Shown here one piece after another: positions 4,443 to 26,858 of a stretch of DNA of 64,000 nucleotides. The DNA is from Marsupella aquatica (Eukaryota; Plantae; Marchantiophyta), in assembly GCA_973895155.1 (NCBI GenBank), contig OZ316891.1, positions 16,457,651 to 16,521,650 on the forward strand. The letters run 5' to 3'. The position numbers and the translations under genes were made by a program. Below the pieces are notes generated by a model. It was not told the DNA's origin and did no database searches. It saw nothing but the letters and a program-made list of their open reading frames with translations. How positions within the stretch are numbered: the first letter of the stretch is position 1; each line of letters starts with the position of its first letter.

Positions 4443-5954
4443 GTGGGACTCAGGTAACCCCATAATGAAGTCCATGGAGATGGACTCCCATGGAGCTGCA
4501 ACTACTGGTAAGGGTTGCAGAAGTCTTCCTTTTGCTTGGTTCTTTTGGCACGAGTAACAACTTTGCACGTGGCAAAGAACCGATTGCTTCATGTCCGGCC
4601 AATACACATCTTGCAACATGCTGCAATACGTAGCAGCTTGTCCGCCATGCCCTCCCCAGGGCAACTTGTGGTACTTTTGCATAACCTCCAGTCTTAGAGA
4701 CTCTGGGATGTACACTTGTCTCTGCTTGTATCGCCATAACTGGACATTATGCGTAGCATCCAACCCCAATGAAACATGCCTTACCTTGCCTTGACTACCC
4801 CCATTGCTTTGCCATTCCTTGGCTAACTTGTCATCCTCATACGCCTTGGCCAGAACCTTTGGCCACCCGGATTCGAGCATCGTGATCCCATTGACACGAT
4901 GATGGTCCCTACGCAATATTGCGTCAGCTGCTATGTTTGTCTTCCAAGAAGAACGTGACGGACTTCAAAATCAAAATCCGCCAAGAACATTTGCCAGCTC
5001 ATTTCCTTGGGGTTCAGCCTCGACTTAGAATTGAAGTACCCGGCCGACAAGCTATCTATGTGTATTACCACCTTGGGACCGTTCTTAAGGTAAATTTCTC
5101 ACTTCTTCAATGCATAGATCACCACGTACATTTCCCTTTCCGGGGTGATCCAATGATTTTCCAACTTACATGACTCGAAGGCCACGGGACGTCCGTCTTG
5201 GTGTAGATAGGTGCCAATGGCGTAATCACTTGCGTCTGTCCAAATCTCAAATGGCTTCCCCATCTCAAGCAACTTTAGAACCGGTGGTGTTATCAATAGC
5301 CGCTTGAGTTCTAGTGCTAACTCGCAATCCTATATCCACACAAACACTTTGTTTTTCATTGTTAGCTCGTTTAGGGGCCTCGTGATCCTCGCATAGTCTT
5401 TCATGTATCTCCGATAGAACCCTGTAAATTCTAAGAAGGCTCTAACTTGCCTTACATTGGATGGGCGTTCCCATCCTTTGATCTCCTTAAGCTTGTCCTG
5501 ACTAGGCATAATCCCCTTCGGGGTAAAGGTGTGGCCGAGGAACTGAATCTTGTTCATCGCAAGTTTGCGCTTGCTAGGTTTAGCAAAGAGACAAGTCTTA
5601 CAAAGGCAAGAGAATACTTCCCTGAGCAACTGCTCATGTTCCTCCAACATTTTTGAGTAGATTAGGATGTTGTCAATAAAGCCTACCACTCCTTGGTCTA
5701 ACAAGTCATGAAAGATGGTATAATTCATTATCTTACCCTTGTGTGCAACCCAAACGGCATAACCAAAAATTCATAGGATCCAACCCTTGTGTGCATCATG
5801 GTCTTATACTCATCTCCCTTAGCCATGCGGGTCTGGTAATACCCAGACCGCAAGTCCACCTTTGAAAACTTCTTAGCCACGGAGAGGCAATCAAAGAGGT
5901 CATCCATATGAGGTAATGGGTACTTGTTCTTTACCATTTGCTTCTTGAGGGTGA
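4443..5954 (-). pseudogene. pol: Ty3/gypsy pol fragment: RT - RNase H - integrase N-terminus, degenerate
   Basis: KNKYPLP...[12 protein letters not shown]...[10 protein letters not shown] (RT), FIDNILIYS (degenerate YxDD), WTDASDYAIG (RNase H), HKLPWGGHGG...CYSCQ and WESISMDFIMGLP (integrase); order RT-RH-INT. Confidence 0.92.
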
Positions 5955-6015
5955 GGGGAGGTAATCCATCAGTTATCAGTCACTGATATCAGTGACCCCC
6001 CTTTTTTTTCTCTAA

Positions 6016-6650
6016 TCTGGGAGAGCTCTCCAAGATGGCGACAGTTTTTTTTGGCAATCTCAGAGAGCTCTCCGAGATCCCTACCGTTTTTTTGGCCGGA
6101 GAGCTCTCCAAGATGGCAACAATTGTTTTTGGCAATCTTGGAGAGGCTCTCTGAGATCCCTACCATTTTTATGGCAATCTTGGAGAGGCTCTCTGAGATC
6201 CCAACACACTTCTAGGAGTATGTTGGAGACATGGTAGTTTGTTTGCTCACCATGTGAGAGAGCCTCTCCGATGTACCAAGTCACTCCGTTGCCATCTCGG
6301 AGAGTCTCTCCGAGATACCAAGTCTTTTTGTTGACCATCTTGGAGAGCCTCTCCGAGATACCAAGTCTTCTCGTTGACCATCTCGGAGAGCCTCTCCGAG
6401 ATACCAAGTCTTTTTGTTGACCATCTCGGAGAGCCTCTCCGAGATACCAAGTCTTTTTGTTGACCATCTCGGAGAGCCTCTCCGAGATACCAAGTCTTTT
6501 TGTTGACCATCTCAAAGAGCCTCTCTGAGATACCAAGTCTTTTTGTTGACCATCTCGGAGAGCCTCTCCGAGATACCAAGTCACTTTGCAAACCATCTTC
6601 GACTTTCCCATTCCATTTCTAAGACCATCTCAAAGAGCCTCTCCGAGATA
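6016..6650. repeat. Palindrome array 1 (left subterminal), 43-bp unit
   Basis: ATCTCGGAGAGCCTCTCCGAGAT + ACCAAGTCTTTTTGTTGACC repeated at 43-bp spacing (6296, 6339, ...); more diverged copies at 6016-6200. Confidence 0.95.
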
Positions 6651-6772
6651 CAAATACAAAAAACTTGCAAGTGATACACATCACATTCACTTTTCATATA
6701 TATGGTAATGTGTACACAGGAACACTTCATCATTGCTACCTTCTCTAAAGCTAAACCCTATTGGCCACTACT

Positions 6773-7887
6773 TTATTCTGTTATCTGATATGTGCACAGG
6801 TCATAAATAATCTTCTTTTGCAAGTTTCCTACCTGGCTGCCATCAAAATCCATAGGAGCATCTCGACTTATGCGCTCTACATAGTTAAGGATAAATACCC
6901 CACAATTTACACTATCTTCTTGTGATGGAAGGCCTGACACTAAAGTTCTAGGCCAGTTGTATGCATCTGGTGAGGGCATGCCACTTTGACTTGCTTCATC
7001 CTCGATATACCTTGTTAGAGTATACATGAGATACTCATTTCGAGCCTCCCAAAAGTTTCCTGATTTCTCCCAAAGCGAATCTAGGAACAACACCTCTTTT
7101 CCAGTTAAATCAATCACTGCCAACACCCAATGCTCCCTATTTGCCTGGTGGATAGGGACCAATATCCTGTCATAATCAAATATGTTTTCTGTTTTGGTCC
7201 ATCGAGCAACATTGGCAAAACAGTATACGGGCGTTGAGAGCAACGTGTAGAATGCTGTGATGAAAAATGCACACTTTGGATAGCCTCTTGATCTCCCCCT
7301 AGACTGCAACAAGGCCAAGTATGCATCGATGATATCTGAATGTAGCCATTGAGCTGCTATTCTTCCTTCAGACAAGCATCTCATTGACGCCCTAGTCAAC
7401 TTGTAATCTACAAAGTTGAATAGTACTTCCTCGTCTGGGAGCTCTATGGATAGACATGTGGATACTATGTCGGAAAAGTCTTGAGAGCAGACTACTTCAG
7501 CAAATAACCGAGGTATCCGAGTATTCCCACCACGTGCTACATAGGATTGAACAACATGGCATTAGGCATCATCTTCATCTAAGCTATAGGTCACAAAAGA
7601 AGGGTGAGCTATCTTGTCACTATCACTGCTGACACTCTCACTTTCATTGTAGTCTACCTCTACTGCTCTATCATCTACAAATCTAGATTTTTGCCTCTTT
7701 GTGTACTTCTCAGCTACACCCTTGAGCCGTTTGAAGGGGCGTGAATCAACAATCCCTTCTGCGTAAGTTGGAAGGCAAAATCTTTCTGGAGAGAAAGTTT
7801 TCAATGCTTCCTCCCATGCTTCACGGACTTTGTCCTTGTCTGATGTGTGCCATTGTTCGGACTCGATGTTCCTGTAGTGAACTGCCT
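6773..7887 (-). pseudogene. Ulp1/SENP-family SUMO protease (peptidase C48) exon
   Basis: WLHSDIIDAY, RILVPIHQANREHWVLAVID...FLDSL, SQEDSVNCGVF (His-Asp-Gln-Cys residues present); in frame with ORF 7562-7804 across one TAA. Confidence 0.9.
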
Positions 7888-8404
7888 ATTGGTTAAGTAG
7901 ACAGTTTAAGGTAATACCATAATAATGTGGAACTTCACATTTTTATTGATCCTCACCATGGCACAATGTAAATTGCAAACTACCTACAACAAATGGGTTC
8001 TTGGATTCAACGTTTACTCACAATCCTGAGCATTCCCACCCTTGCCTTTTGCGGCATCCTCCTCTGATACAGACTCAAGGACCAGCTTCTTCCGCCCTTT
8101 AGGCTTCTTAGTCTCCTTGGCCTCCTCCTTCTTACTCTCCTCGCCCTCCGCCTTGGTCTGATTGCCTTGCTGCATTGAAAGGAGTTTTGACACCACTAAA
8201 GCTGCTGACTCACCAAAGTAGTCATGCGCTTCCATCCCAAATACTAGTCGCCCACAATTATTGGCAGCTTTGTAGATAGCACCAAAGTGGACATTCCAAG
8301 AAAATATGATATCGCCGAGACTGGTGATGTGCTCTATGATGCATTGCAAGGTTGCAAGCGATAAGGTTCCGGCCAATTCGTCTCTCACTGCATCATCTTC
8401 CTTT

Positions 8405-9113
8405 CCTGGGAAAATAGTTTTTATAATAAAAAGGTGAGACCGCAAAAACCCCACGGCCGGGGGGAAGCAAACAGCCCCTTAGATATATCAGCACAACTCC
8501 CACAGGGAGGCCAGCAGGCATAAGCAAAGGCCAGAATCACAATAAACATAAAAAAGGGGAGACTGAAGCTATAGGCCCAAAACGTGAGTGACCCACACAT
8601 CATGTCAACTTGTAGAGCCCTAGAGCCGATAAGCAAGGTAACCCATTCACCCTTTTCCAATAGCTATCACTCCTAGACCAGCAACGCAGCCACTGAGGTG
8701 ACTCTGCCAGTACTCCTAGCAAACCAGTGTCGTTGTTTTAAAGCGATGAGATCCCTAGCCTTAGCCAGTCTGATGCGCCGCCCACCAATGGGGAGGCACC
8801 AGCCCGCAGCTCGCAAGTGCGTCTCAGTTTCCGAGAGGACCAGCCCAAAATCAAATACTCTGATCTGCTTTTTCTCAAAAATCTGCTCATTTCGTCCCAT
8901 CCATAGAGCCCACAGTATTTGATACTGCAGGAAAAAGCAGGTAGATTGAGTGTGTGTTCTGGAGTCTGTAGCAACAAGGAGTTCCAGGCTACCCCAACCC
9001 CTGCCAAACAGTTGTCTCAAGGAGCTGGACTCTCCAATTCCCCAACAGCGCATGGCGTGGGCACAGCCAAAGAAGAGGTGGGGGATGCTTTCAATTCTCC
9101 CAGGGCAAACATG
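8405..9113 (-). mobile_element. 5'-truncated L1 LINE with 15-bp TSD
   Basis: TSD GCATCATCTTCCTTT at 8390-8404 and 9114-9128; encodes HLFFGCAHAMRCW...QILWALWMGRNEQIF (end of ORF2, zf-RVT region), resembling 51338-51802. Confidence 0.9.
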
Positions 9114-9329
9114 GCATCATCTTCCTTTGTAAAATTGGATAGAGCATTGCTCTTTGCTGGGCACAAGTCACCAGTAATTGGCTTCATATGTACCTTTGGG
9201 AGGGTCACCTCTGTACCCTTTATGGTGAATATATCTAAATGCAGATATTGAGCCTGTCACATCATGCAAAATAGATTTGCACTTGTTAGCAACACTAATT
9301 GCTAAACTTATCCGACATCGGTCCTACCT

Positions 9330-9810
9330 ATCTCAGAGAGGCTCTCCGAGATCCATGCTACCTATCTCAAAGAGGCTCTCCGAGATGGATCCTACCTATC
9401 TCAAAGAGGCTCTCCGAGATCCATGCTACCTATCTCAGAGAGGCTCTCCGAGATGGATCCTACCTATCTCAGAGAGGCTCTCCGAGATGGATCCTACCTA
9501 TCTCAAAGAGGCTCTCCGAGATCCATGCTACCTATCTCAGAGAGGCTCTCCAAGATGGATCCTACCTATCTCAAAGAGGCTCTCCAAGATGGATCCTACC
9601 TATCTCAGAGAGGCTCTCCGAGATCCATGCTACCTATCTTAGAGAGGCTCTCCGAGATTGATCCTACCTATCTTGGAGAGCCTCTCCGAGATTGATCCTA
9701 CCTATCTCGGAGAGCCTCTCCAAGATCAATGTTACCGATATGGGAGAGGGTGTCCGAGATTGTAATTGCGGACACATTTTTCAACTATCTCGGAGAGCCT
9801 CTCCGAGATG
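9330..9810. repeat. Palindrome array 2 (intronic), 34-bp unit
   Basis: Palindrome plus an 11-bp spacer alternating CCATGCTACCT / GGATCCTACCT; about 12 units inside intron ~9254-9846. Confidence 0.95.
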
Positions 9811-12227
9811 ACTTCTATTGAAATGCCAAAATTGAAGTGAACTTACAGCTTTTTTGCTTGATGCCATGTAGCAAGGTGTGTCATTCCAAATGGTGAATGA
9901 GTCAATGTGATCCAACTTCTCAGCCCGGTCAATGTGAAGGTACTCAAAGATTGAGCTTGTGTGGGCAAATGAACCACTATGCACGATGCACAGGAAACCG
10001 TCATTTGTGAGTAGAGAGTCTGCCACTGTCGTCGCCACTTCTAGGTCACTGAGCCAAAATCTATTCCACACTGGAACATTATTTTCAGCTTGCGCTATGC
10101 GATAATCTGTCCCTAACTGAACAAAGATCATATCACAACCATGGCCCTTAGGTACACCATCAACTATCCAGCCTTGTTTTCGCAAGCCAGCCAACTTCAA
10201 TTTCTTACACCAATCCCGGAATTCCCTCATGAATGGAGGGAGAGACAACTTTCCCGTGGTTGGCTGGTATTTGTCCTTCAGTCAAGAAGAACACTCTAGT
10301 AAGGTCATATGCTCTTTTGCATGGCAAAATTGCAGGGCAGATGTAATAGCATGAGAGGGCCGAGGTACTCCAAGAATTTTGCAAAGATCATCCTCCGGAA
10401 TTTCTGGGGCTTCTGTTGAAACTGGCTTCTTTGTGGGTTTGTCTATCCTCTTCTCGGCTTTCTTCTTTGGCCGACTGGTTGGCTTACCAGAGATTTGTGG
10501 TTTGCTTGGGGTCCCAATCGGGGTCCCGCTTGGGGTTGAAAGGTCAGGCTCCTCCTCCTCCTCATGGCCCTCTGCATTGTCCCCGGTGGCCATCTCATCC
10601 TCCTCTCCATTGGCCCCACTTGCCGCTTTCTCATCCTCCTCTCAATTGTCCCCACTCACCGCTTTCTCATCCTCCTCTCCATTGTCCCCGGTCTTTCTTG
10701 GCTCCATCTTCTCATCCATCGAACGACGTTTGCTTGAGGTAGACCCTGGGGTTCCAAACTTTTCTTTACTTTTTTCTGCAGAACAAAGTAAGGAGTTTAG
10801 TATACATTTTACAATGATACTATCTCGGAGAGGCTCTCAAACATAGGTCAGATGTACAATGCAAGCTAGGGTGTAAACCTTACCAGGAGTGCCTTGTTCT
10901 GAGGTGGTGTCTTCTGATTCCTTTTCTTTCTTCCCCCGAACCTTCTTCCCATCATACTCTGGCTCTCCAAGAGGCAAAATGGCCTCCAAGTCCAATGCAG
11001 CCTTTGTCGACTGCTCAAGATCTGCCAACTTTGAAGGCGCAAAAAGGTTGTCTGGTAGTTTCCCCTCCTTTAGGAGGTTGGTAGCTTCCTTCTCTTTGGC
11101 CGTAATGAACTCATTCCAATCATTGAACTCCATGAACCATGGACAATTTTGTCTCTCCCAGTCTGAAAAGACTCTTGCTGCTAGCTTCAGCCCGTCTGTT
11201 GGATACATTGATAGCGGGCCTTTCTCCGTCATCCATGCAGTCAAAGCACTTGGTAACTCTTTGAAAGTAGAGGCTCCAATGCTCTCCTAATGAAGTAAAT
11301 ATCTGACCACACACCTCTTTGCACGCTTCCTCCACACATCTTTGCTTTGCTTTGCTGGATTCCACATCTTCTTGCCCTCCTCATAGGACCGAGTCTGTAC
11401 AAATTGCTTGTACATCTTGTTGTGAAACTCAACAAACTTGTCTTTGCTTCCATTGAAGTTCTGCCACTCACCAGAATCATATGCACTCTTGGCAAACTCT
11501 GACATGATCAAACTGCCAACATGGGCAATGTAACACCACATTGCACACTAGCAATCAAGCTCTCACTGCTGAATCACCATATACATCTGGATGGTGGTGT
11601 TGCTTCTTCTCCTCCGCGGTTGAGAAATGAACACGGAGTAACTTATTTCGACACTCAGTAGGCATCACCGCACTTGCAAACAATTTAACTCAATCCAACC
11701 CCACTTGCACTTGTGGCCAATCTTTCTGTTTACTCTGCAACTGGTGCAGCTCCTCGGCAATCTCCAAAAATTCCTCTCCATTTGCTGGATTGACAATCTG
11801 AGCAAACTTCTGCATTTTTCCCTCCCAAGACCTACAGGCTTCACTCGTCATGAGTGCGGTTTCCTTTTGGAACTTATCCAAACTCCAGGCATGGCCAATT
11901 GCAGCATCGACTGCCATCTCCTTCGCAAGACGAATCCTCCCGTCTTCAATATTATTCCACGACATGATGTACACAACAGCATCCTTTGTCATGCACTTGC
12001 TATACCATGTCTTTCCATGCCCATGGCTTCTTGCTGCTAAGAATCTACCATTACCATCCGGATGAAGCAATGTCTGATACTCCTACAAAGGTGTCATCAA
12101 CAACTTCTTCACCCTGTCTGCATCGGTCAACCAAGATGTCTGCACAACGTTTGCGCTTATCCTGCGTAAAAGAAGCAACAAATGTTGGCGTCAAAGGCTA
12201 TGTACAAGCAAATTAGATCTCTGTCAG

Positions 12228-12500
12228 ATGCTCTCCGAGAAGGCATGGATATCTCGGAGAGGCTCTCCGAGAAGGCATGGATATCTCAGAGAGGCTCTCC
12301 GAGAAGGCATCGCTCTTCAAGAAGGCATGGATATCTCGGAGAGGCTCTCTGAGAAGGCATGGATATCTTGGAGAGGCTCTCCGAGAAGGCATCGCTCTTC
12401 AAGAAGGCATGGATATCTCGGAGAGCCTCTCTAAGATAGCATTTTGAGAGCCAAACATTGTATGTGTGTATGTATCTATCTCAAAGAGCCTCTCCAAGAT
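12228..12500. repeat. Palindrome array 3 (intronic), 32-bp unit
   Basis: ATCTCGGAGAGGCTCTCCGAGAAGGCATGGAT repeats (12251, 12283, ...) inside intron ~12162-12572. Confidence 0.93.
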
Positions 12501-13269
12501 AGGATTGCCTATGTGGGTGCAAAGGAACAACAAATGCAAGAACAACCAAAAACCAAGGGGGCGATCACTTACGCATTGAGGCCATGCATTGCCTGCTCAA
12601 TCTTCCTGAATCCTTGTTTTCCAGTTTGTAGAAGAGAGAATCTCACGCAAGGGTGGTAATTCTGCTCGTTAGGATACTCTTCAGCCACTTGTCTCCATGC
12701 ATTCAGGCGATGATTTCCATCAAACACCCAAAACATCTTACCCTTCAAAATGTGAAACTCCTCGTACTCATCACACTCCATCTCAAATTTTGCGTTAGCT
12801 TGTTCCCATAGAGGGTCCCAATCTGCGGAAAATTCAGACATAGAGTGGGTGGCGTTATGCGCATTGGTCTCTGATACGTGGAATTCCAAAAACTTGTCCA
12901 CATACCCATTCTTCACAAAGTCCTTCTTCATCTTGAGAATGGAACTCTGTTGGAGAGTCCGAACTGCCTCCATTGTCATCAAACGACATAGTGGAATCCG
13001 AGGTGGCTCTCTGGGCTTCCCGCTTGGTTAGCTCCAAATGAAACCAAGTACTCCCCAACAATCCCTTCGAATGCACCTTTGTTCAAACGTTCAGCAGACA
13101 CATTTTCAAAGTTCAGAACCTTTGGCTCCAGCTTCATTGTGTGAGTTTCCCGACCACTGGCGGTGCTCTCTGCTGTCTTTGATCTGATCTGCTGACCAGA
13201 CAATGAAGGAGAGGGAGTGGGTTGCTTCCTCTTCCCTATCATTTTCAAACCTCACCAACTACTGAATTG

Positions 13270-13740
13270 CATGAGCACAACTTGCACAACACTTGCACCG
13301 CCCACAGCTCAGTTGCAGCAAGCTCAATCACTGGCAATGCATGGCACAACACACAACACATTCGCACCGCTTGCACAACACTCGCACTCGCACCGCCATA
13401 GGTCACCGCACTCAATCGCACCGCTTCCAGCACTCGCACTCACAATCGCACCGCTTCCAGCACTCGTACCACCACAACTCAGTCGCAACAAGCTCAATCA
13501 CTAGCAGTGGCACAACACACAACACAATCGCACCACTTTCACAGCACTCGCACTCGCACCGCCACAGGTCACCGCACTCAATCGCACCGCTTCCACCACT
13601 CGCACTCACAATCACACCGCTTCCAGCACTCGCACCACCACAACTTAGTCGCAGCAAGCTCAATCACTGGCAGTGGCACAACACACAACACAATTGCACC
13701 GCTTCCAGCACTCGCACCACCACAACTCAGTCGCAGCAAA
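13270..13740. repeat. AC-rich compound tandem repeat (~170-bp higher-order unit) upstream of the ParB-like gene
   Basis: Recurrent CACTCGCAC, AATCGCACCGCTTCCAG and AAGCTCAATCACTGGCA blocks, about 2.5 copies. Confidence 0.85.
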
Positions 13741-13832
13741 CTCCCTATCCCATAGGGTTTTGTGGGTTTTACTGGAAAATAAAAATAAAAATAAAAATAT
13801 TGAGCCTAATCCTTGCTAAACACCTGAAGATG

Positions 13833-14600
13833 GCATCTCGGAGAGCCTCTCCAACATCCCTAAACCCTTCATACCTACGCAAGATGGTATCTTGGAGAGC
13901 CTCTCCAACATGGGTCAAGGCTACATACCTCCGCAAGATGGCATCTTGGAGAGCCTCTCCAAGATGAAACTTGGTGAGATCCGGTGCAAGATCCCGTGCA
14001 AGATCTAATCTCAGAGAGGCTCTCCAAGATGGGTCGAGGCTATATACCTCCGCAAGATGGCATCTTGGAGAGCCTCTCCAAGATGAAACTTGGTGATATC
14101 CGGTGCAAGATCTAATCTCAGAGAGCCTCTCCAAGATGGGCCGAGGCTACATACCTCCGCAAGATGGCATCTCAGAGAGCCTCTCCAAGATGAAACTTGG
14201 TGAGATCCGGTGCAAGATCTAATCTCGGAGAGCCTCTCTAACATGGGTCAAGGGTACATACCTGCGCAAGATGGCATGTCGGAGAGCCTCTCCAAGATGA
14301 AACTTGGTGAGATCCGGTGCAAGATCTAATCTTGGAGAGCCTCTCCAAGATGGGTCGAGGCTACATACCTCCGCAAGATGGCATCTCGGAGAGCCTCTCC
14401 AAGATGAAACTTGGTGAGATCCGGTGCAAGATCTAATCTCGGAGAGCCTCTCTAACATGGGTCGAGGGTTCATACCTTCGCAAGATGGCATGTCGGAGAG
14501 CCTCTCCAAGATGAAACTTGGTGAGATCCGGTGCAAGATCAATCTCAGAGAGCCTCACTAACATGGGTTGAGGCTTCCAGATGGCATCTGAGAGAGCCTA
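13833..14600. repeat. Palindrome array 4 (intergenic), 107-bp dimer unit
   Basis: Palindrome alternating with spacers GGGTCGAGGCTACATACCTCCGCAAGATGGC and GAAACTTGGTGAGATCCGGTGCAAGATCTA; period 107 (14222, 14329). Confidence 0.95.
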
Positions 14601-14659
14601 ATGGACACCCTAAACTTGCTGTCAAAGGTTCTTGGATGTTCAACGAGGGAAGAATATTT

Positions 14660-15120
14660 GTAACAATTTTTACGCTTGGTCTGGGCGATAAGGTACTCTG
14701 ACAAAACAATCTTGACATATTCAACAAAGAAAGAAGCGAGTCTAACAATTTTTACACTCTGTCTAGGCGGTAAGGTACTCTGACAAAACAATCTTGACAT
14801 TCAACAAAGAAAGAAGCGAGTGTAACAGTTTTTACGCTCGGTCTGGGCAATAAGGTACTTTGACAAAACAATCTTGACATATTCAACAAAGAAAGAAGCG
14901 AGTGTAACAGTTTTTACGCTCGGTCTGGGCGATAAGGTACTCTGACAAAACAATCTTGACATATTCAACAAAGAAAGAAGTGAGTGTAATAGTTTTTACG
15001 CTCTATCTGGGCGGTAAGGTACTCTGACAAAACAATCGTCACATATTCAGAAAGAAAGAAGCGACTCTAATAGTTTTTACGCTTTGTCTGGGCGATAAGG
15101 TACTCTGAGAAAACAAAGTC
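14660..15120. repeat. ~82-bp tandem repeat, about 6 copies, between the divergent MULE genes
   Basis: TTTTTACGCTCGGTCTGGGCGATAAGGTACTCTGACAAAACAATCTTGACATATTCAACAAAGAAAGAAGCGAG repeated. Confidence 0.92.
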
Positions 15121-15234
15121 ATAAGAATGAATAGCAGTTTTCACATACTGTTTGCTGATTAAGTTACGCTCTTGAGAAACAAAGAGGAATTGAGCAAGCC
15201 GGAAAGGCAATAACATCCCTTACATGAACGAGGT

Positions 15235-18200
15235 TGTGATGCCTAGCCAGGAATCATTGGGCTAGTTTAAGTGGAAAAGAGAAGTGTACCCTAGAAACAC
15301 CTTAGTATAGTTACAAAAATAAGGAAAATATAAACAATTAAGGGTGACTCTGGAACCCGAGCTGAGGCCGGAAGTAAGGACGCCAGGGGAGAGAACACGA
15401 TTAGGGTTAGGGCACGCTAAGTGCCGGCGGCTAGGGGTAACCAACGGGAGGGAGAACCAGAGGAGGAGAGGGGTAAGGACCGCTCGCGAGGAATAGTGGC
15501 TCATTTGCAAGCACGAACTGGGCAGGCGACTACGGGCGGCCAACTACTGTCAACTGCTTAGGCAAGCGCTTAGGGTGGGAACAGATACCGACTATCAACT
15601 CGAGAAGGGTATGAGCAACATCAATCAAGCGGCACATTTTTGGGGATGCCTGTTCGAACGGGCAACTGAGTACATTGGGACTTATGAGGACGAAGAATCG
15701 AAGAGAGCAGCTCAAGAACGACAGGAGCTCGCCCGATTGTGGGAGCTACAGAAAGCTGCCTTCTTAGGAGGAGAACTCATCAAGGCTGAATTCCTGTGGA
15801 CACCTACTGGCAACGAGCTAGACGACCTGCTATTTTGCGAAGATAGAGTCGTCGGCATCCGAGAAGCCATCAAACGCTGCAACGACATACACTGGGAGTT
15901 GAAGGGTAGCACGGAGGGGTGGACAAAGGCAACCGTGCTAGGAGAGACATCCACGGGAGCCGAGATGAAGAGGAAGGGGAACAACAATGAAGAGGCCACC
16001 CCAGCAAAAAGAACGAGGTCGACGGCACCAAAGAAGCCAGCAGAACAGCAGAGCAGGAGGCAGAGAGAAGCCGAGGAGGAGGAGGTCAACCCCATCAATG
16101 CCATTCCAACAAACGATGACACCTGGAAAGGCTGGGCGGCGACCCTACCAGAGGAAGTGCAATTACACTTTGCACGGGAGGAGGATGCATGCTTTACAGC
16201 TATGCAGACCAAGAAATACCAAGGCTTCATGGCCGGATCCGGCTTGGAAGCCTTCGTAAGATTACCACGGCTGAAGCCGGAGGTGCCGGACTCAGACTTG
16301 TTAAAATCCGTGGGATCATGGGAGTCCAAGACCAATTCCACAAGGGTGTATGGGAAGGATTTCTATCTCACTCCCCGGGTGATTGCTGAAGTGTTTGGCT
16401 TGCCGATGGGTAATAAGACCAAGGTTGATACCAGGAAGACCTTACCTGACAAGGAGTTTCGGTCGTTCCTAGGACCATCAACAAAGAATGGCTTCTTCCG
16501 GAACACCTGCACCAACCCGCACATTGGAGAGATGATCGATTTCTTGCGGGTAACCATGCACTGTAACTTGCCGAGGGCAGAGATCGGCAAGGCTCAGGTC
16601 TACCTGGAAAAAAGGCCAGACCGGGCCCAAGCCGGGATTACAACGGGTACCTCCTCAACCAACTGAAGAAGATCTTGAAGGAGGAACAGCAGGTGATCGG
16701 CGTGGGAAGCGTGTCCCGGCTTGGCTATCACATGCCGCTGTTGTGCCGGTATGCCAGAAGTCAAATCTTTGCCCCAGTACTTCCCCTATCGGCAAGAGCA
16801 CCGGAGGAGGTCCCGGAGCAGAGGCCGGCAACGGAGAAACCCAACCCGCCCGACAGTCCTACAATCGAGCAAGTGTTTAGGCCAAGGACGGAGGACTTGC
16901 CGATGCAGCAACCAGGCATGCAGAATCTGCTGAAATTGCTGGAGAAGGAAAAGAGAACGGCAACGGCAACGGCAACGGCACCAATGCAGGACACTGCTCC
17001 AGAGGTGGGCCTAAGCCGGCTTACAAGGGAAAACCCCTTTACTGGGGTCAAGGAGAGAAGGAGGCCGGAACACGAGCCGGGAGTCCGGATGTATGTCGGA
17101 GCCTCAAGTCCCGAAGCCGAGGAGAAGCAGGCCGTAGCTCCCGGCCACGACAAGGAGAACAAGAGATCAACATGGAAGCCGAAGGAGGAACCAAGACCGG
17201 TGAGAGGTGAAGTCGTGTTCACGACAAAACCAGGAGAACAGTGGGAGAAGCCGGTAGTCCAAGCCGAGGAGGAGGCGGTAGAGGACTACAGCAATGATGA
17301 CTCCGGCTACGGGTCGGATCATCATGTTCCAGGAGTAAGGACCTGTGGCCGGTTCATCCCCACGCTCCCAAGAGTAGTTCGAGGAGACCCGAGCCAGCAG
17401 AGCAGCCCCGAGTCTCCCCCACCAGATGTCGCTCCCCCGAGCTTTGACGGCATAAAACAAACGGCGCAGGAATTTCAGGAGCGAATCAGGGAGGAAGAGG
17501 AGGCAGCCCTGGCTAGGGAAAAGGATTTACCAGGAGGAGAATGGCCAGAGGACATCAGGCGGCTTGCAGAAAAACGAAGCATCCCTCCAGCCACAATAGA
17601 AAAGATCCGCAAGGCGGCTTGGGAGCACAGGCCGCGGTGGATGATGCCGATGACTTCTACTTCCTCCACCTATGCTAAAAATAGAGCCATGGAGTACGGG
17701 GAAATGTGTGGAGAGCAAGCGCTCAGCATCTTTGGGGAAGAGTTGGAGCAAGGACCCTTTTTTCAGAGGGAGATGTTGGAGAAGTGCCAATTAGAAGAAG
17801 CGGTGGCTTTGGAAAGAAGCAAGAAGGACGAGGTCATCCGTCGGCTCAGGGCAAGGGAAGCCGAAATCAAAGACCTGAGGGCGGCCAAGAAAGCCCAAGA
17901 TGAGCTACGGATTAAGCGGCATGAGCTAAATATCATGCAGGGCCAATTGGATACCGCATAGTCTGATAATCGGATTATCGAGAATAAATTGACTCGAACC
18001 CAAGAAGAGTTGGCCGATGCGATCAAGGAGCGAGAGAAGTGGAAGCGAGAGCTGAGGGATGCAAAGGAGGCCCACATAACAGCCAACAACCGGGCCAGGG
18101 CGGAGACCCAAAGAAGGGAAAGGGCATTGAAGGGGGAGCTCGAGGTTATCCGCGGAGCCCTTGAGAAGAAGGAGGCCGAGTTAGGGAAATCCTATCAAGG

Positions 18201-19978
18201 GATTATTGCGCTGCAGCAAGAGCTTGCATCCCTGACGGCCAGCTTCAAGGCCGACCTGCGTGAGAAGGACAATATGCTCGATCAGACTTATGCCAAGATG
18301 AACCAGATGGAGTCTGTCATCATTGCAGAGCTTGACAAGGAGTTAAGAGCAACCCGGGAGGAGAGAGCTACGTTTAAACAGGAATTGGAGGAAGCCCAAA
18401 AGGAGCTGGAGGAGGCGCGCAAGGACCTGGACGAAGTGCAGGAAGAGTTGGAGGAAAGCACGCGGAAGCTAGAGAACTTACAACGACGAGCCGACAACCA
18501 AACGGAGCGGCTGAAGAAACAAGCCGCAGTATTTAAGTGCTTGGCTTCATCAGGGCCAACTCAAATTGAGGCCACTAAGTTACCAGGAGTGGTACTGGCC
18601 GAAGGACAAGCCGCGCCATTTGCACTAGTGCCGGAAGTAAGTGGGAAGAGGAAGGGGCCAGCTGCCGAACCAGAAAAGAAGAAGAAGTGGAAACCTTCAG
18701 GGTCAGGGAGTAATACGGCTCCACAGGCCATGGTGACCAAGGAGGTAAACCCAGCACCGACCTCGGGCAGGGTTACGGCAGAGGATCCAACTACCCTAGA
18801 AGAAGGGGATGACAAAGCCGAGGCCAGGATACTCGGTAATGAAGCCGAGGTACCCAATCCGCCATTTGAGTGTGCAGGGGAGGCCGTAGCCGTGGCTGAG
18901 GCCGTAGCCAAGGCTGATGTTGAAGCCGATGCCGTTGCCGGGGGCGGACCCAATCAGGCCGATGGAGAGTTGACTCAGTCAAGGGCAGGTAATCTGTCAG
19001 AGAACAAACCTACGGCAATGGCTGAGGTGGAAGCGTTGGGGGCGTCCACTGAGGAACAGACACCGCTGCCATGACGATGGTGGAGGGCTGCTCCTTTCAA
19101 GGAGGGTGGACGTGGAGGGAGGAGGCGTGAGTGGGCAGGGCGGGCTCAAATCTCTAAGTTTAGGATTAGGATCAGGACCAGGAGGCAGCCCTGACACTTA
19201 GCTTAGTAGGATTGCGGTTCCACTGGTAAGAGCAACACTTGTACTCCTGCCTTGCTGTACATAGGTAGATTCAGTTAGGTAGATTAGGCTTACGCTGCAA
19301 GGAATTAGGCGGATCCACTACCAGGATAAGTACCTGGGCAGCGGGGAGCTCAGGGCCTCTTCTTTAGCAAGTTTTTAGTTGCACCAGCCGGGCTGGGATC
19401 AAGTAGTAAGAGAAGCTCTCGGTTAGTCATACAGTGACCCTTGTGTATATTCATGTTTCCTCATGCCTAAGAGCTAAATAGAGTTGGCCTCACGGCTTAG
19501 TTCGCAGAGCTTGTGTATGAGATGTACTGTTTGTATGGCAAGTGCATGGTATGACTCAGTCAGAAGGAGTCATTTTGCTATTTGTGTGTCGCATTAACTT
19601 GTGTGAAGAGTGCCCACATCAACTAATAGAGGAAGGAAAGTAAGCAAGGGAGTGAGAGTTGGATGTGTCGAGCTGAGAGAGGTCTTAGCGGCTTAACCAA
19701 GCCTATTGGGGATCATTCCGGCGGCGGAATCCAAATATACCTAACAAGATGGAGGGGAAGACAAGGGAAGGCCTAGATTAGGCTGGCTACGTATCTCATG
19801 ATCCAATGAAGGATCTGTCCAATATATGCGTGTAAAATGTTAATAGTAGTAGTAGAAGGAGGTTAGTAGCGTCCCATGGCACTAAGCCGCGGAAACGGCC
19901 TCGCCAAGCACGAAACCCGCGGGAATCGGCTTGTGAAGGGGGGTTTCTGGGGTTTAGGGAGCCATGGGACGCACCACA
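15235..19978 (+). mobile_element. Giant LTR family X, full length (~4.74 kb)
   Basis: TGTGATGCCTAG...GGACGCACCACA; ORF pieces 15575-16666, 16675-17961, 17989-19074. Confidence 0.93.
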
Positions 19979-22350
19979 GCTTGGGAACAAAGGCTGCGGT
20001 GGATGATGCCGATGACTTCTACTTCCTCCACCTATGCTAAAAATAGAGCCATGGAGTACGGGGAGATGTGTGGAGAGCAAGCGCTCAGCATCTTTGGGGA
20101 GGAGTTGGAGCAAGGACCCTTTTTTCATAGGGAGATGTTGGAGAAGCGCCAATTAGAAGAAGCGGTGGCTTTGGAAAGAAGCAAGAAGGACGAGGTCATC
20201 CGTCGGCTTAGGGCAAGGGAAGCCAAAATCAAAGACCTGAGGGCGGCCAAGAAAGCCCAAGATGAGCTACGGATTAAGCGGCATGAGCTAAATATCATGC
20301 AGGGCCAATTGGATACCGCATAGTCTGATAATCGGATTATCGAGAATAAACTGACTCGAACCCAAGGAGAGTTGGCCGATGCAATCAAGGAGCAGGAGAA
20401 GTGGAAGCGAGAGCTGAGGGATGCAGAGGAGGCCCACATAACAGCCAACAACCGGGCCATGGCGGAGACCCAGAGAAGGGAAAGGGCGTTGAAGGGGGAG
20501 CTCGAGGATATCCGCGGAGCCCTTGAGCAGAAGGAGGCTGAGTTAGGGAAATCCTATCAAGGGATTATTGCGCTGCAGCAGGAGCTTGCGTCCCTGAAGG
20601 CCAGCTTCAAGGCCGACCTACAAGAGAAGGATGACCAGCTTGACTAGACTTATGCCAAGATGAATAAAATGGAGTCTGAGGTCGTAACGGAGCTCGACAA
20701 AGAGCTAAGAGCAACCCAGGAGGAGAGGGCTACCTTCAAGAAGGAATTGGAGGAAGCCCACAGGGAGCTGGAGGAAGCCCAGAAGGAGCTGGAGGAGGCG
20801 TGCAAGGACCTGGACGAAGTGCAGGAAGAGTTGGAGGAAAGCACGCAGAAGCTGGAAAACTTACAATGGCGAGCCGACAACCAAACGGAGCGACTGAAGA
20901 AACAAGTCGCAGTATTTAAGTGCTTGGCTTCTTCCAGCCCAACTCCAATTGGGGCAACCAAGTTACCAGGAGTGGTACTGGCCGAAGGACAAGCCGCGCC
21001 ACTTGCACCAGTGCCGGAGGTAAGTGGGAAGGGGAAGGGGCCAGCTGCCGAACCAGAAAAGAAGAAGAAGCGAAAACCTTTTGGGTCAAGGAGTAATACG
21101 GCTCCACAGGCCATGGTGACCAAGGAGGTAAACCCAGCACCGACCTCAGGCAGGGTCACAGTAGAGGATCCAACTACCCTAGAAGGAGGGGAGGGCAAAC
21201 CCGAGGCCGGGATACTCGGTAATGAAGCCGAGGTACCGAAACCACCACTTGAGTGTGCAGGGGAGGCCGTAGCCGAGGCTGATGCCAAAGCCGATGCCGA
21301 TGCCGAAGCCGAGGGTGGACCCAGTCAGGCCGATGGAGAGTTGACTCAGTCTAGGGCAGGTAATCTGTCAGAGAACGAACCTACGGCAGTGGCTGAGGAG
21401 GAAGCGTTGGGGGCGTCCATTGAGGAACAGACACCGCTGCCATGATGGTGGTGGAGGGCCGCTCCTTTCAAGGAGGGCGGACGTGGAGGGAGGAGGCGTG
21501 AGTGGGCAGGGCAGGCTCAAATCTCTAAGTTTAGGATTAGGATCAGGACTAGGAGGCGGCCCTGACACTTAGCTTAGTGGGATTGTGGTTCTACTGGTAA
21601 GAACAACACTTGTACTTCTGCCTCGCTGTACATAGGTAGATTCAGTTAGGTAGATTAGGCTTACGCTGCAAGGAATTAGGTGGATCCACTACCAGGATAA
21701 GTACCTGGGCAGCGGGGAGCTCAGGGCCTCTTCTTTAGCAAGTTTTTAGTTGCACCAGCCGGGCTGGGATCAAGTAGTAAGAGAAGCTCTCGGTTAGTCA
21801 TACAGTGACCCTTGTGTATATTCATGTTTCCTCATGCCTAAGAGCTGAATAGAGTTGGCCTCACGGCTTAGTTCGCAGAGCTTGTGTATGAGATATACTG
21901 TTTGTATGGCAAGTGCATGGTATGACTCAGTCAGAAGGAGTCATTTTGCTATTTGTGTGTCGCATTAACTTGTGTGAAGAGTGCCCACATCAACTAATAG
22001 ATGAAGGAAAGTAAGCAAGGGAGTGAGAGTTGGATGTGTCGAGCTGAGAGAGGTCTTAGCGGCTTAACCAAGCCTGTTGGGGATCATTCCGGCGGCGGAA
22101 TCCAAACATACCTAACCAGAAGGAGGGGAAGACAAGGGAAGGCCTAGATTAGGCCGGCTACGTATCTCATGACCCGATGAAGGATCTGTCTAGTATATGT
22201 GTGTAAAATGTTAATAGTAGTAGTAGAAAGAAGTTAGCAGCGTCCCATGCCGCTAAGCCGCGAAAACGGCCTCGCCAAGCGCGAAACCTGCGGGAATCGG
22301 CTTGTGCAGGGGGGGTTTCTTGGGTTTAGGGAGCCATGGGACGCACCACA
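19979..22350 (+). mobile_element. 3' half of another family-X LTR, in tandem with the previous copy
   Basis: Begins mid-ORF (GCTTGGGAACAAAGG, cf. 17617) and ends GCACCACA; the composite 15235-22350 is flanked by GAGGT/GAGGC. Confidence 0.92.
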
Positions 22351-22421
22351 GAGGCATCTCTCGGTAGATGCCACTTGAACTCTCTTGGTGCTCATTTTTA
22401 GTCTTTCTTCAAGTGGTTATC

Positions 22422-25400
22422 ATGGCTGGCCGTGTGAGGATCACGTTTCCAGACAATGGAGACGTTGTTGTGCTAGTGACTGATGGTGTTGTTCGACATA
22501 CACCAGACAACAAATTAGCTCGTCGGTTTGATGTTGAGATTGGGGAGTGGGCACTCTTTGAGGCCGGCGATGTCTTACCATTGATTGAGGCAGACTCAGA
22601 GGAGAGTGGAGAGGAAAGGATATGGCATCTGAAAAGTGAAGTTTCGTACCTCCTTCAGCAGAGGGTGTACTCTGTTCCTCTTACTGAAGTTGGTTTGCAA
22701 TCTCAAACTGGAGAGAAGATTTCAGAGTGGCCGGTAGAGGTAGAGCAAGCCAAATTTCTTGAAAGTGTTGTTGTTGCAATGCTGAAAGGGAAAGGCACTT
22801 CGCGATGTGTAAAGGCTGCCCATTCCATTCTCAGAGTGCATTATCCACAACGAGTCATGACTCTGCCATAATGGTCTGATGGGGATTGCATTTTTGAGCT
22901 CCCCCCATTCACAGGTATCCACACAAAGGGTGCCTTCTTCTTGGGTATGGAGCGGAGAAATGACTGCTACTTGTGGAGCAAGCTCATCGAGACAGGGGCC
23001 CAAATTGGACCCAACCTAAACAAGGGAGGCTTCAAGTATAAGATTGGGAATGTGAGATGTCTGGGCTCTTTGCAATGTCCACATTCAGATTCTCCGGCTT
23101 TTACAAGTAAGAATGAGCGCAATTGCACAGAATGGCAGCGAGATAGGGGTGGGAGAAATGAGTTTCCATTTCTTGTTGGGCAACTAGTTCCAGCAGAGAG
23201 TGTGATTTGCGCCTTTTGTGATCGGCCTCCTAAGTGTATAGCCAAGTGTCCAACCAAAATGTTCTACATCACTCCAACCTCTCATGACCATTACATTTAC
23301 AAGCACATGACACATGTTGCTATGCATGTTGGGAGTCACTCACATCCGGCCAAATTTGTTCTCAAGAAAGATCGAAAAGCGTTCTTACATAAGTTGATGG
23401 AAGAGAAATTGAAGAAGAATCCTCATGCAATGCCGTCTGTGATCAAGAGTGACACAATTAAAGCTCTAAGGGATATTTTTGATGACAAGGTTGCTGGGAT
23501 TGTCACATTTGAGGAAGCACGGGATCTGAATGAAACATTGGCGATCCTATCAAATTGATCAGTTGTAAGATCTATGATACAGAGCATACGCAAGTATACC
23601 CATGCCTCATCCGACCTCCAAGTCATCCTTGATCTTAAAAAAAAACAGTGTTTTCATTTGTCCAGAGCACTCTATTTCCAAACCAGAAGCTAGATACAGA
23701 TGAGCGCCCACACATTTTCAAGATGACTGTAAAGAGTCTAGGGTCTGGAATCGATCTCATTCAAAGGATGTAGCCTGGTAGAGATCTACAAGACTCATGG
23801 ATGATGTTTGATGTCATGCATTGGATGACTGAGAAGCAATGGTGCACAATGTCAGCTCATGTATACGACCACCTATACAAAGGTCTTTGCACAATTTTTG
23901 TATGCGAGCTAGTTTCGGAAGATACTGCTGCACTACAAACTGCATGGAAGGCCATGAAGCAAGTGTCTAAGGCAAATGGGCTTGACAATGTTACGTTTTA
24001 TGGGTTCATTGCCGATAATGCTACAGCTAGGTGGAATGCAGTTTGAAACACATTCTGGGATGGAAGAGTTAATTCTCAAAAGGAGCGATCTGATGCATTT
24101 CACTGGGCGCAATCAGTGGAGAAGATGACAAAGAAATGCATTCTTCCTGGCAAAGCAGTTGAGCATAAGGAGCTTCTGGATTCATTGAGGGACGCTGCCA
24201 ATGTGGTTCTTGCATTTCGGACTTTTGAGAAGATGAAGGATTGGTGGAAAAATGGGAATGCAATCAAAGGAAAAACCAAGTCAATGGAGACATGGCTTTT
24301 GTGGTGGATTGTGTGGTTCTCCTAGTGGGGAAACTTTATTTGCTGGTAAGTCTATGAATTCTTAGTAATATTCCATCTTGGAGAGGCTCTCCAAGATGAT
24401 TAATCTTGGACATGTCAGAGAGCTTATTTGAGAACAACAAATTGGTCTTCTCGGAGAGCCTCTCCGAGATGGAACATATGGGTAATCTTCGAGATGGAAG
24501 ACGGGTCATCTCAGAGATCCTCTCCGAGATGGAAGAGGTGGGTCATCTTGGAGAGTCTCTCCAAGATGGAAGAGGTGGGTCATCTCGGAGAGGCTCTTCA
24601 AGATGAAAGAGGTGGGTCATCTCGGAGAGCCTCTCCAAGATGGAAGAGGTGGGTCATCTTGGAGAGCCTCTCCGAGAGGAACATATGGGTAATCTTGGAG
24701 AGCCTCTCCGAGATGAAAGAGGTGGGTCATCTCGGAGAGCCTCTCCAAGATGGAAGAGGTGGGTCATCTTGGAGAGCCTCTCCCAGATGAAACAAATGGG
24801 CGACTAGGAAGACATGTTAGAGAGCAAACTTTTGTTTTGTAAATATATGGTTCATCTTAGAGAGGCTCTCCGAGATGGAACACTGGTCATCTTGGAGAGC
24901 CTCTCTAGGATGGACCCCGTTGGACATGTTGCAGATGTACAAGATGACTCATGTACATTTTTTGGTAATACTCTTTTCTTTGATTTTTGTGTAGGACATG
25001 GACAGAACTAAGTCTGCATTGATGCTGAACCATAGCGGGGCAGAATCCATGCATGCCGCGATGCGCGGATGGTCTTCCACAACAAAGATTGGGATAGTGC
25101 AATCTTGTATAACAGATGCAACCCGTGCATCAAATCAAATTGGTGCCCTTGTGAACTACACGACCCACAAGAGGAAGGGCCGTGGCCCAAGCCTCTTTGA
25201 ACTTCGTCTCTGAGATGCCAGGATGGTTGGGAATGTTAAGAGTTTCTTCCCAAAGTTAAATACGACAATGACTCAACCGGAGATGGTTGAATATGCTTTG
25301 GGGGACCCAATTCTTGGTGACTATGAAACTCAACGAATGTCGGCGCGAGGCAAGGTTCCAGCTAATGCTATTGCAGTAGAAGACTCCCACCGCAATGATG

Positions 25401-26639
25401 TCATTCTAGTAACGCAACCTAAGAAGCGAAAGTTCAAGGGGATTTTAAGCCAAGATGCAAACTTGAAAAGTACCATTCCTGACGTGGTCGACTTGTCAAC
25501 CTCGTTAGACTCTTCTCCAGGCTCTGGTGGATCAGATGTGGTGATTTTGGAGAGCCCAGTACAGCGTGAGACAAGGTCGGCACGTGTCCCTCCACCATCA
25601 ACCCCAAGGAGGTCAACTCGAGTGCCTCCTCCGCCCCCAACAAGGGCAACACGTGTTCCACCTCCTCCAACCCCAACAAGGTCAATACCAAGGTCACCTC
25701 GTGTTTGTCCACCAAGGCGGTTTGCTGAACCTTTGCATAATGCTGGCAAATAGAGACAAGTTCAAGAGAGCAATGTGATGCCAGGAATGTTGTTTTTGTC
25801 TTGCATCAGTCGCCATGGAAGTGGGCCCGCTTGTAGAGGTGCCTTCAAAGGCACAGAACGTCCAACATGCTGTCTATACATCAAGGAGGTGGGGTTTTGT
25901 CATGCAATGTTGGGTGTGGTAGGATTGTGCTTATTGGCTGGGAGCAGTTACAAGGATCCAAACATTGCACAAAAGTTTTGGTTTTGCCCAAACAATGAGT
26001 GTTGCCAGAAATCCTCCATGGCATATGTTACTGGGCGGCTGCCCCCACTACCGGAGAAGGTCCCAGTTGCTCGATGAACCTATCTAACACAAGAGGAAGT
26101 TGATTTTCTCCATGTCAATGGATTGAATGTGGTACAGACCATCATTCCTGGTGATTCAATGGTGAGTCCTGGCAATGTAATTGTGGACTTGAATAGTTAC
26201 CCTAAGCAGATGGATCCATTGAAGCCTGATGTCAGGCTGAGCCGGCGCAATGGCCGCTTACGGCGAAGGAGATCCGTTGTGACGGCAGATGCAAAGAAAC
26301 GTATTGAGAGTGCCAAATACGTATTGAGAGTTGATGAGGTTCACTTCCATGACTCGAATTGAAAAAGAGAATGCAACTGGCTTACGAGTGGTATTTTTCA
26401 ACACTCATCGTGACCGCAATTCAGCCCATTGTCTACAGATATGTGTGTTCCCAACTTGCTCTTGTCAAGATTTCATCATGAGAGATACTGGAAGATACTT
26501 CTTTCCTTGCAAACACTTGTATTGGTGCTATAAAAACATTTGTGGACAAGATCTAGAGAGCAACCAAGAGATCCACCAACCAATCTTGACACTTAGCGAG
26601 GTTCGTAAATTGGTGTCAAATGTAGCAGGCTCAGGGTGA
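22422..26639 (+). pseudogene. MULE-type DDE transposase with N-terminal GCM-like Zn domain and C-terminal SWIM finger
   Basis: RCLGSLQC...CAFC...C...HVGSHSHP (GCM-like); MMFDVMH...FYGFIADNATARWNAV...DAFHWAQSV (MULE DDE core); PTCSCQDF...PCKHLYW (SWIM). Intron ~24346-24994; several stops and frameshifts. Confidence 0.82.
24374..24910. repeat. Palindrome array 5 (transposase intron), 37-bp unit
   Basis: Palindrome + GGAAGAGGTGGGTC (24545, 24582, ...), between GTAAGT donor ~24346 and TGTAG acceptor ~24994. Confidence 0.95.
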
Positions 26640-26737
26640 ATGCATGTCAAAGATGTTTCAGGTTTAGTGGGTATAACGATCTACTTTTGTATCCTTTCAT
26701 AATAATAAATGTTCAAGATTTCAAATGATGTTGATCC

Positions 26738-26858
26738 CATCTCGAAGACGCTCTCCGAGATTCCAACCTAGTGTGGATCCCATCTTGGAGAGGCTCTCCG
26801 CGATTCCAAGTGATGTTGATCCCATCTCGGAGGCTCTCTGAGATTCCAAGTGATGTTG
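26738..26858. repeat. Palindrome array 6 (right subterminal, truncated)
   Basis: Three diverged palindromes with spacer TCCAAGTGATGTTGATCCC. Confidence 0.85.

Follow-up and report, generated by a model that had tools for sequence, protein, structure and literature searches.

We analysed a 64,000-nucleotide stretch of the genome of the liverwort Marsupella aquatica (contig OZ316891.1, positions 16,457,651 to 16,521,650; hereafter, the window). It contains one decayed copy of an abundant Mutator-like plant transposon, in which a gene with a predicted ParB-fold domain, a degenerate methyltransferase fold and a SUMO protease (Ulp1) domain diverges from the transposase and is accompanied by dozens of copies of one palindrome. 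On balance, sequence comparison leads us to favor the view that the palindromes are self-recognition sites for the ParB-fold protein, because a two-fold symmetric site suits a dimer, the sites crowd the introns and the promoter side of the gene, and the sites change with the protein.

The palindrome has the 23-bp consensus ATCTCGGAGAG(C/G)CTCTCCGAGAT, whose inner GAGAG and CTCT are almost invariant. A preliminary description of this DNA had estimated by eye some 60–70 copies, all in non-coding parts of the element and absent from the rest of the window. A pattern scan of the whole window confirmed this, with 60 copies at no more than five mismatches (48 of them at no more than two) between 6135 and 26782, and none at that threshold in the window outside the element, where the flanking DNA comprises about 43 kb and is repeat-rich. 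Five base-shuffled versions of the window gave no matches. In our gene model of the window, exons hold 0 of the 60 copies and the nested long terminal repeat (LTR) insertion holds none; 11 lie at the left end, 14 in intron 3, 1 in intron 2, 6 in intron 1, 14 upstream of the ParB-fold gene, 12 in the transposase intron and 2 at the right end. The introns and upstream region of the ParB-fold gene thus hold 35 of the 60. The arrays are as follows.

6015..6649, unstranded: left-end palindrome arrays of 42/43-bp units; 11 copies and two further 22-bp variants, at 6015 and 6057
9330..9809, unstranded: intron-3 palindrome array of a 34-bp unit; 14 copies
10822..10844, unstranded: single palindrome in intron 2, an intron of 108 bp
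12251..12500, unstranded: intron-1 palindromes; 6 copies
13835..14564, unstranded: upstream palindrome array of a 107-bp unit with two sites each; 14 copies
24375..24911, unstranded: transposase-intron palindrome array of a 37-bp unit; 12 copies
26716..26858, unstranded: right-side palindrome array of a 43-bp unit, truncated by an LTR

The 23-bp core is common to arrays whose units (32–107 bp) and flanks are unrelated. Together the copies show 112 departures from the consensus, of which 83 are C>T or G>A within CG or CCG. This pattern fits earlier methylation, so the sites were probably methylated in the past. It is barely credible that the arrays represent neutral tandem growth of a hairpin-prone seed or of a tiny non-autonomous insertion: the tandem units do vary freely in length and the element also has non-palindromic arrays, but the sharing of one core among unrelated flanks, its absence from the 43 kb of flanking DNA, and the survival of half-sites and spacer length in a locus 48% identical in protein (described below) all argue against such an origin.

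Spacings between palindromes of 32, 42–43, 53–54, 63–65 and 73–75 bp are close to whole helical turns, and the arrays with 34- and 37-bp spacing are off helical phase. These spacings bear on a different role, in which the ParB-fold protein would bind the palindromes for transposition, by bridging or compacting the long element or recruiting the transposase, and not for anti-silencing. Sites spanning the whole element with both ends included, the many near-helical spacings (32, 42–43 and 53–54 bp) and the condensation of DNA around parS described for bacterial ParB (PMC8299390) would suit such a role. We nevertheless consider it very unlikely, given the arrays that are off helical phase and the chromatin-type fusions (Ulp1 here; SET and 2-oxoglutarate (2OG) oxygenase in the red-algal cassette as described so far), which point to chromatin.

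Other repeats were also observed. Two non-palindromic tandem arrays lie between both genes (14659–15116 and 13290–13717, with 82-bp and 82/166-bp units); they lack the 23-bp motif, and the 82-bp array is a possible further binding motif. Just within the left end, at 5979–5996, there is a perfect 18-bp palindrome, GTCACTGATATCAGTGAC, which is unrelated to the 23-bp motif and is a possible end site for the transposase.

The ParB-fold gene lies on the minus strand, and it and the transposase face apart on opposite strands. Its model, predicted from sequence, has five exons, four GT-AG introns and 1,499 codons, and encodes in order the ParB fold, a helical region, the degenerate N4/N6-methyltransferase fold and Ulp1.

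12573..13242, minus strand: exon 1, predicted ParB/sulfiredoxin-fold domain with DGNHR; one frameshift
10884..12161, minus strand: exon 2, conserved helical region that is a candidate for DNA recognition; contains stops and one frameshift
9847..10775, minus strand: exon 3, acidic/low-complexity linker plus the first half of the methyltransferase fold, with QLGT at motif IV
8022..9253, minus strand: exon 4, second half of the methyltransferase fold; degenerate S-adenosylmethionine (SAM)-motif region; a long interspersed nuclear element (LINE)-like piece inside
6773..7881, minus strand: exon 5, linker and Ulp1/Peptidase_C48; one internal stop

The DGNHR motif, the methyltransferase-like exons and the Ulp1 domain reported previously were all recovered. 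Exon 2 matched Riccia proteins in tblastn with E-values of 1e-19 to 1e-22. Exon 5 matched PF02902 (Peptidase_C48) with an E-value of 2.4e-25, and the His, Asp, Gln and Cys motif residues are all present. Ulp1 does lie within the element, as had been stated, but it does not stand as a separate gene: in the predicted model it reads as the last exon of the ParB/methyltransferase-like gene, joined in frame through a GT-AG intron. Neither DUF1985 nor DUF287 gave a Pfam match in the window exons or the full-length relatives, and sequence searches of Pfam and PDB gave no identification for either the ParB exon or the transposase core.

A ParB fold had been expected from the DGNHR motif, and structural comparison agreed. 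We used an AlphaFold model of the Riccia relative P0158 (mean predicted local distance difference test score (pLDDT) 70; residues ~10–520 mostly above 80). The top ten Foldseek matches were all ParB/Noc family or related chains, the best VIA match was Caulobacter ParB (7bm8; Z 8.7, root-mean-square deviation (rmsd) 2.4, 100 aligned), and a search of 48,161 chains returned ParB/Srx folds in its top six places (KorB: Z 7.5, rmsd 2.7, 95 aligned). Searching 1.84 billion representative sequences with an exon-1 profile yielded 393 clusters. Of 152 relatives, 98 retain [DE]GNHR, and an R, the D-G-N-H and a terminal N appear at no less than 90% of 40 aligned rows. Together, these results support a ParB-fold domain encoded by the first exon, as modelled from its Riccia relative. 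A homodimer prediction for P0158 residues 10–480 gave no verdict either way (score 0.00), the fold of the protein itself being uncertain in that run. Word scans yielded 79 candidates in viral contigs and 209 in prokaryote genomes, none of which was confirmed as a relative; phage methyltransferases gave weak matches (11 records, E 4e-3 to 6e-2).

The expected N6_N4_Mtase fold was likewise found in intact relatives. The C-terminal end of P0156 (Riccia R1sor_027256; 1,207 aa, apparently intact, collinear with four window segments and without Ulp1) matched PF01555 with an E-value of 5e-5, just under the cut-off, and phage methyltransferase profiles with 9e-7; in intact relatives, the values ranged from 9e-6 to 5e-5 for PF01555 and reached 4e-9 for the phage profiles. 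In N4-C/N6-A methyltransferases, the canonical motif IV is (D/N/S)PP(Y/F/W) and SAM motif I is F-x-G-x-G. Among 32 distinct rows of the family, motif IV has D or N in 27, the canonical PP in none and the aromatic residue in one. The glycine-rich SAM motif is kept in Riccia copies (DFAGGWG, close to the canonical form) and lost in the window copy (SWNVHFG); the related loci L004 and L016 have DWNASTG and DCHAMTG, which do not resemble it. Since motif IV is non-canonical in all 32 rows, active N4-methylcytosine (4mC) or N6-methyladenine (6mA) marking is less likely, and we predict a catalytically dead fold that instead makes contact with DNA or protein. Enzymatic marking, which the preliminary description had allowed for, thus finds no support in a motif that departs from the canonical form across the family and is lost in the window copy. 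An active ParB-guided N4-C or N6-A methyltransferase that writes a bacterial-type mark on its own element corresponds to a published proposal (PMC12477816). The PF01555 and phage-profile matches, the Riccia DFAGGWG and the frequent D or N at motif IV are in keeping with this, and plants are able to make 4mC: the working enzyme MpDN4MT1 has TSPPY (10.1101/2021.02.12.428880). With PP in 0 of 32 rows, an aromatic residue in one, and QLGT and SWNVHFG in the window, however, we consider an active enzyme improbable. Eukaryotic methyltransferases derived from phage ParB-terminase loci have been noted (PMC4738411).

We took the best 80 of 155 related loci confirmed in a metagenome scan, which with the window form 49 clusters at 90% identity; a ParB tree took in 71 of these 81 rows. 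Species names stand on 11 of 20 family or transposase proteins (Riccia sorocarpa 7, Adiantum 4). The loci have introns at like positions, and the methyltransferase motif-IV exon was found in 21 of the 80. A search for Ulp1 among the 80 loci and the collected proteins was negative, a weak result given a single-sequence profile and many short loci. In the Adiantum protein P0096 (GOP47_0020039), the ParB-like gene is joined to a NIF/FCP1 phosphatase domain (E 2.4e-12), which is either another cargo fusion or a gene-model merge.

Linkage of the transposase to the ParB-like gene, posited in the preliminary description, is supported in other copies and lineages. Four contigs of run X2 join the transposase side directly to sequence left of the 7.1-kb LTR-type insertion that separates the two genes in the window; because they cross the site without the LTR, the two halves of the element are contiguous in other copies. 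Of 12 clusters with at least 4.5 kb upstream, five have opposite-strand transposase remains (one of them a SWIM finger only), one has same-strand remains and six have none.

Repeated motifs also accompany the gene elsewhere. A motif in at least five copies was present in 22 of 35 clusters with a locus of at least 1.9 kb (window included). In length-matched 2.5-kb intervals, motif arrays occurred near the gene in 12 of 27 cases and far from it in 0 of 14 (Fisher p 0.003), and the relatives place their arrays both upstream of and within the ParB-like gene. The motifs are mostly private: those of L005, L006, L007 and L030 are each confined to their own locus among the 80. The L006 palindrome, TGAGGTGCC-N6-GGCACCTCA, has 15 copies, the L030 palindrome was also read directly, and L017 has five dyads. 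A palindrome of the form CAACTTTTG...CAAAAGTTG marks one supported clade (100/97) among the tree rows and occurs also in three near-identical loci too short for the tree. None of the 80 loci has the window motif as a repeat, and L002, a close locus, has one weak look-alike. L001, the other close locus (48% identical; in the clade of the window, 100/96), has two intron-1 copies of ATCTCGG-N9-CCGAGAT, which equals the window palindrome in half-sites and spacer length and differs from it in the middle. With up to two mismatches, this pattern was found in 0 of 79 other loci (540 kb), and shuffles gave 0.0005 per trial. The co-variation of motif and protein, earlier suggested as a test, holds in part: the family-specific arrays, the one clade-specific palindrome and L001 agree with it, whereas two AT-rich motifs cross clades, and the family-specific sites appear to follow the protein tree in part. 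An AT-rich tandem repeat of 25 bp, in up to 57 copies, lies beside ParB-like genes of different clades (L034:4700-6200, L041, L044 and L073) and may be an independent nested repeat.

Several results count against self-recognition through a ParB-fold protein. The Foldseek E-values were 0.11–0.63, with none at or below 0.001; the Z of 7.5 in the wide search is within the range that the tool calls common; and the helical region (model residues 300–390) aligned at an rmsd of ~8 with no clean helix-turn-helix match. In an unbiased test, a long palindrome was present in 6 of the 22 motif-bearing clusters (window included), 13 of the 35 clusters had no repeated motif, and the motifs of L023 and L042 are plainly non-palindromic. 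The two AT-rich motifs that cross ParB clades speak against strict co-variation. Moreover, co-variation cannot tell which protein binds, because the transposase and the ParB-like gene travel together, and a Mutator transposase is able to activate copies of its own family unaided (10.64898/2026.08.24.746577).

The chief rival is accordingly that the transposase itself binds the palindromes, as sub-terminal and internal repeats, and that the ParB-like gene is a passenger or acts elsewhere. Arrays are present at both ends and in the transposase intron, the N-terminus of the transposase is Cys/His-rich, and the AtMu1c transposase is reported to bind and hypomethylate its own family without an accessory gene (10.64898/2026.08.24.746577). 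The AtMu1c peaks, as reported there, are at terminal repeats, whereas here 35 of 60 sites are in the introns of the ParB-fold gene or upstream of it; the relatives have their arrays upstream of and inside this gene; and the red-algal gene PAG3 is described as adjoining inverted-repeat arrays despite an unrelated transposase class. Because ParB-like genes have been published as cargo of Sola1, Plavaka and Zisupton elements (PMC12477816; 10.1101/2025.02.11.637652), the shared factor would be the ParB-like gene and not the class of transposase. Binding by the transposase is thus possible, but we judge it unlikely.

The transposase spans 22422–26642 on the plus strand, with one intron.

22422..24345, plus strand: transposase exon 1, Cys/His-rich N-terminus and the D, D and D-x-x-H of a MULE-like DDE core; broken
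24995..26642, plus strand: transposase exon 2, candidate catalytic Glu, Pro-rich linker and SWIM finger; broken

The D, D, D-x-x-H and later E were recognised by eye, their spacing being judged against the usual pattern. The SWIM finger (PF04434) scored just below its cut-off (19.2 against 19.6 bits, E 8.6e-4) and is also found in L058. Pfam MULE gave no match in the window or in intact relatives, which are 62–68% identical; the nearest Atlas clusters are MULE at 0.87, as a lead only. A structure model from 3 sequences had a pLDDT of 33.6 and was unusable. Mutator/MULE elements make target duplications of 8–11 bp and occur with or without terminal inverted repeats. A C-terminal SWIM finger is described as common in MULEs (PMC6446971). 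We regard these features as a lead to a Mutator-like transposase, short of proof of Mutator/MULE membership. In one intact relative, P0187 (68% identical), the final 20 residues read through the intron into GRGSPRL, the translation of the window palindrome, hinting that the P0187 locus bears the same site.

If the palindromes are self-recognition sites for the ParB-fold protein, the protein would bind them as a dimer in the introns, spacers and ends of the element. Its ParB domain would bind a nucleotide, which in bacterial ParB is cytidine triphosphate (CTP), and the helical region would read the half-site. Through this binding, a family would recognise copies of itself and keep them open to transcription despite host methylation, as VANC does, and the Ulp1 domain fused to the protein in this lineage would deliver de-SUMOylation to the element it occupies. 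We propose an anti-silencing function because VANC and the Ulp1-bearing VANC-type genes serve as models; it is by this analogy that the ParB-fold protein may counteract silencing. A bolder version, speculative and rather doubtful in our view, is that in a liverwort, fern and probably moss lineage a CTP-gated ParB clamp would load at family palindromes, slide through chromatin carrying the dead methyltransferase and, here, the SUMO protease, and strip silencing element-wide, with sites and proteins co-evolving.

The element had been described as a single unit at 5955–26858. Its left end stands, at ~5953, where the frame of a Gypsy-type reverse transcriptase stops at 5952, but two segments within these limits are foreign, and at the right a second LTR begins at 26859 and truncates the element (mixed flanks there in 4 of 4 runs).

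5953..26858, unstranded: Mutator-like DNA transposon copy, ~13 kb of own sequence, within a Gypsy-type reverse transcriptase gene
15235..22350, plus strand: nested LTR-type insertion foreign to the element, TG...CA, with a 2.4-kb internal duplication; empty site in run X2
8390..9113, minus strand: LINE-like insertion of 724 bp with a 15-bp target duplication, interrupting exon 4

The right end, a terminal repeat and the rest of the interrupted reverse transcriptase gene were not found in the window, nor was an inverted or direct partner of the left end, the right end being cut off. The LTR-type insertion (7.1 kb) has the 5-bp target duplication GAGGT/GAGGC. The LINE-like piece matched zf-RVT weakly (E 0.05), and its empty form, with the 724 bases skipped, occurs in run X2. 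Both genes are dead in the window copy: the ParB-fold gene has 7 internal stops and 2 frameshifts and the transposase 8–9 stops; both frameshifts and at least two stops of the ParB-fold gene differ in other copies. The family is abundant, since many variant forms of the element are covered by contigs from five runs (X1, X2, X3, X4 and X6; three organism codes); run X1 alone has 3,770 contigs matching the element.

Elsewhere in the window, an LTR-like TG...CA repeat of ~4.7 kb has at least five copies (15235–22350, 27409–32043, 39770–44442, 1–4123 and 35097–36739); the open frame inside it reaches 789 codons, encodes coiled-coil-like repeats and matches nothing in Pfam. A near-complete LINE with a DUF4283 first open reading frame (ORF1) and reverse transcriptase lies at 46409–51802, and exons of a host gene encoding PX and Rubicon homology domains lie at 56982–60683 on the minus strand.

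The preliminary description had presented the element as a new system. This does not hold, since a ParB-like domain with a methyltransferase is already published for Ectocarpus Sola1-1, and ParB with inverted-repeat arrays for red-algal Plavaka. No land-plant report of this lineage was found in literature that was mostly openly accessible; Iyer et al. 2011 and the Bostrychia supplements may cover plant members, and ParB is not mentioned in the Replitron paper. The idea that ParB-like accessory proteins bind and modify their own transposons was put forward in two algal genome papers, and the land-plant lineage makes it testable, as it offers an intact-looking Riccia protein, several families whose palindromes are long and distinct, and a natural series of proteins with their sites. 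If true, self-recognition by the ParB-fold protein would be a second, unrelated path to VANC-like self-recognition in plants and would provide a set of programmable site-protein pairs. A CTP clamp would mean that the bacterial parS/ParB mechanism serves epigenetic self-defence in plants, and eukaryotic chromatin would then have, possibly for the first time, a nucleotide-gated sliding clamp of this type.

Among known systems, the accessory protein of Ectocarpus Sola1-1_Ec32 has ParB-like and N4/N6-methyltransferase domains, and self-binding was proposed for it (PMC12477816). Both cases are giant DNA transposons with the two domains in one protein, encoded opposite to the transposase strand. Sola1-1_Ec32, compared here by its description, differs in its brown-algal host, its Sola1 superfamily and its length of 1,104 aa, and that description, as available, mentions no Ulp1 or motif arrays. 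In red-algal Plavaka, PAG3 is a ParB-2OG oxygenase with tandem inverted repeats and PAG2 joins PF01555 to SET, and homologs are reported in Chondrus Mutator elements (10.1101/2025.02.11.637652, the Bostrychia preprint). The ParB-like gene (best match 7BNR, a top match here too), the PF01555 methylase, the tandem inverted repeats and the comparison with VANDAL are shared, whereas the oxygenase fusion and the separate SET-fused methylase contrast with the single land-plant gene for ParB, methyltransferase and Ulp1. VANC acts by binding motifs specific to its family, which lie in tandem arrays of non-coding DNA, and by removing methylation (PMC5735166), and some VANC-type genes of Arabidopsis (KAONASHI) carry Ulp1 (PMC13317346). 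A Mutator-like element, family-specific non-coding tandem motifs and an accessory gene, in some cases with Ulp1, are common to these and the present element; VANC differs in its DUF1985/DUF287 domains and its non-palindromic 8–9-base motifs as reported, and in that anti-silencing is shown for VANC and inferred here. Bacterial ParB, Noc and KorB (7bm8, 7bnr, 6sdk and 8qa8) share the N-terminal fold, the G-x-x-R motif and nearby palindromic sites. The plant protein is distinguished by ~10% identity, insertions, no confident helix-turn-helix match and no ParA, and its sites, unlike those of the parS type, are 20–26 bp long and present in dozens of copies in eukaryotic introns. The degenerate catalytic motif argues against mark-writing in land plants and so changes the published hypothesis. 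To a known kind of system, the present lineage adds a land-plant range, family-specific sites, a non-canonical methyltransferase motif and a predicted Ulp1 fusion.

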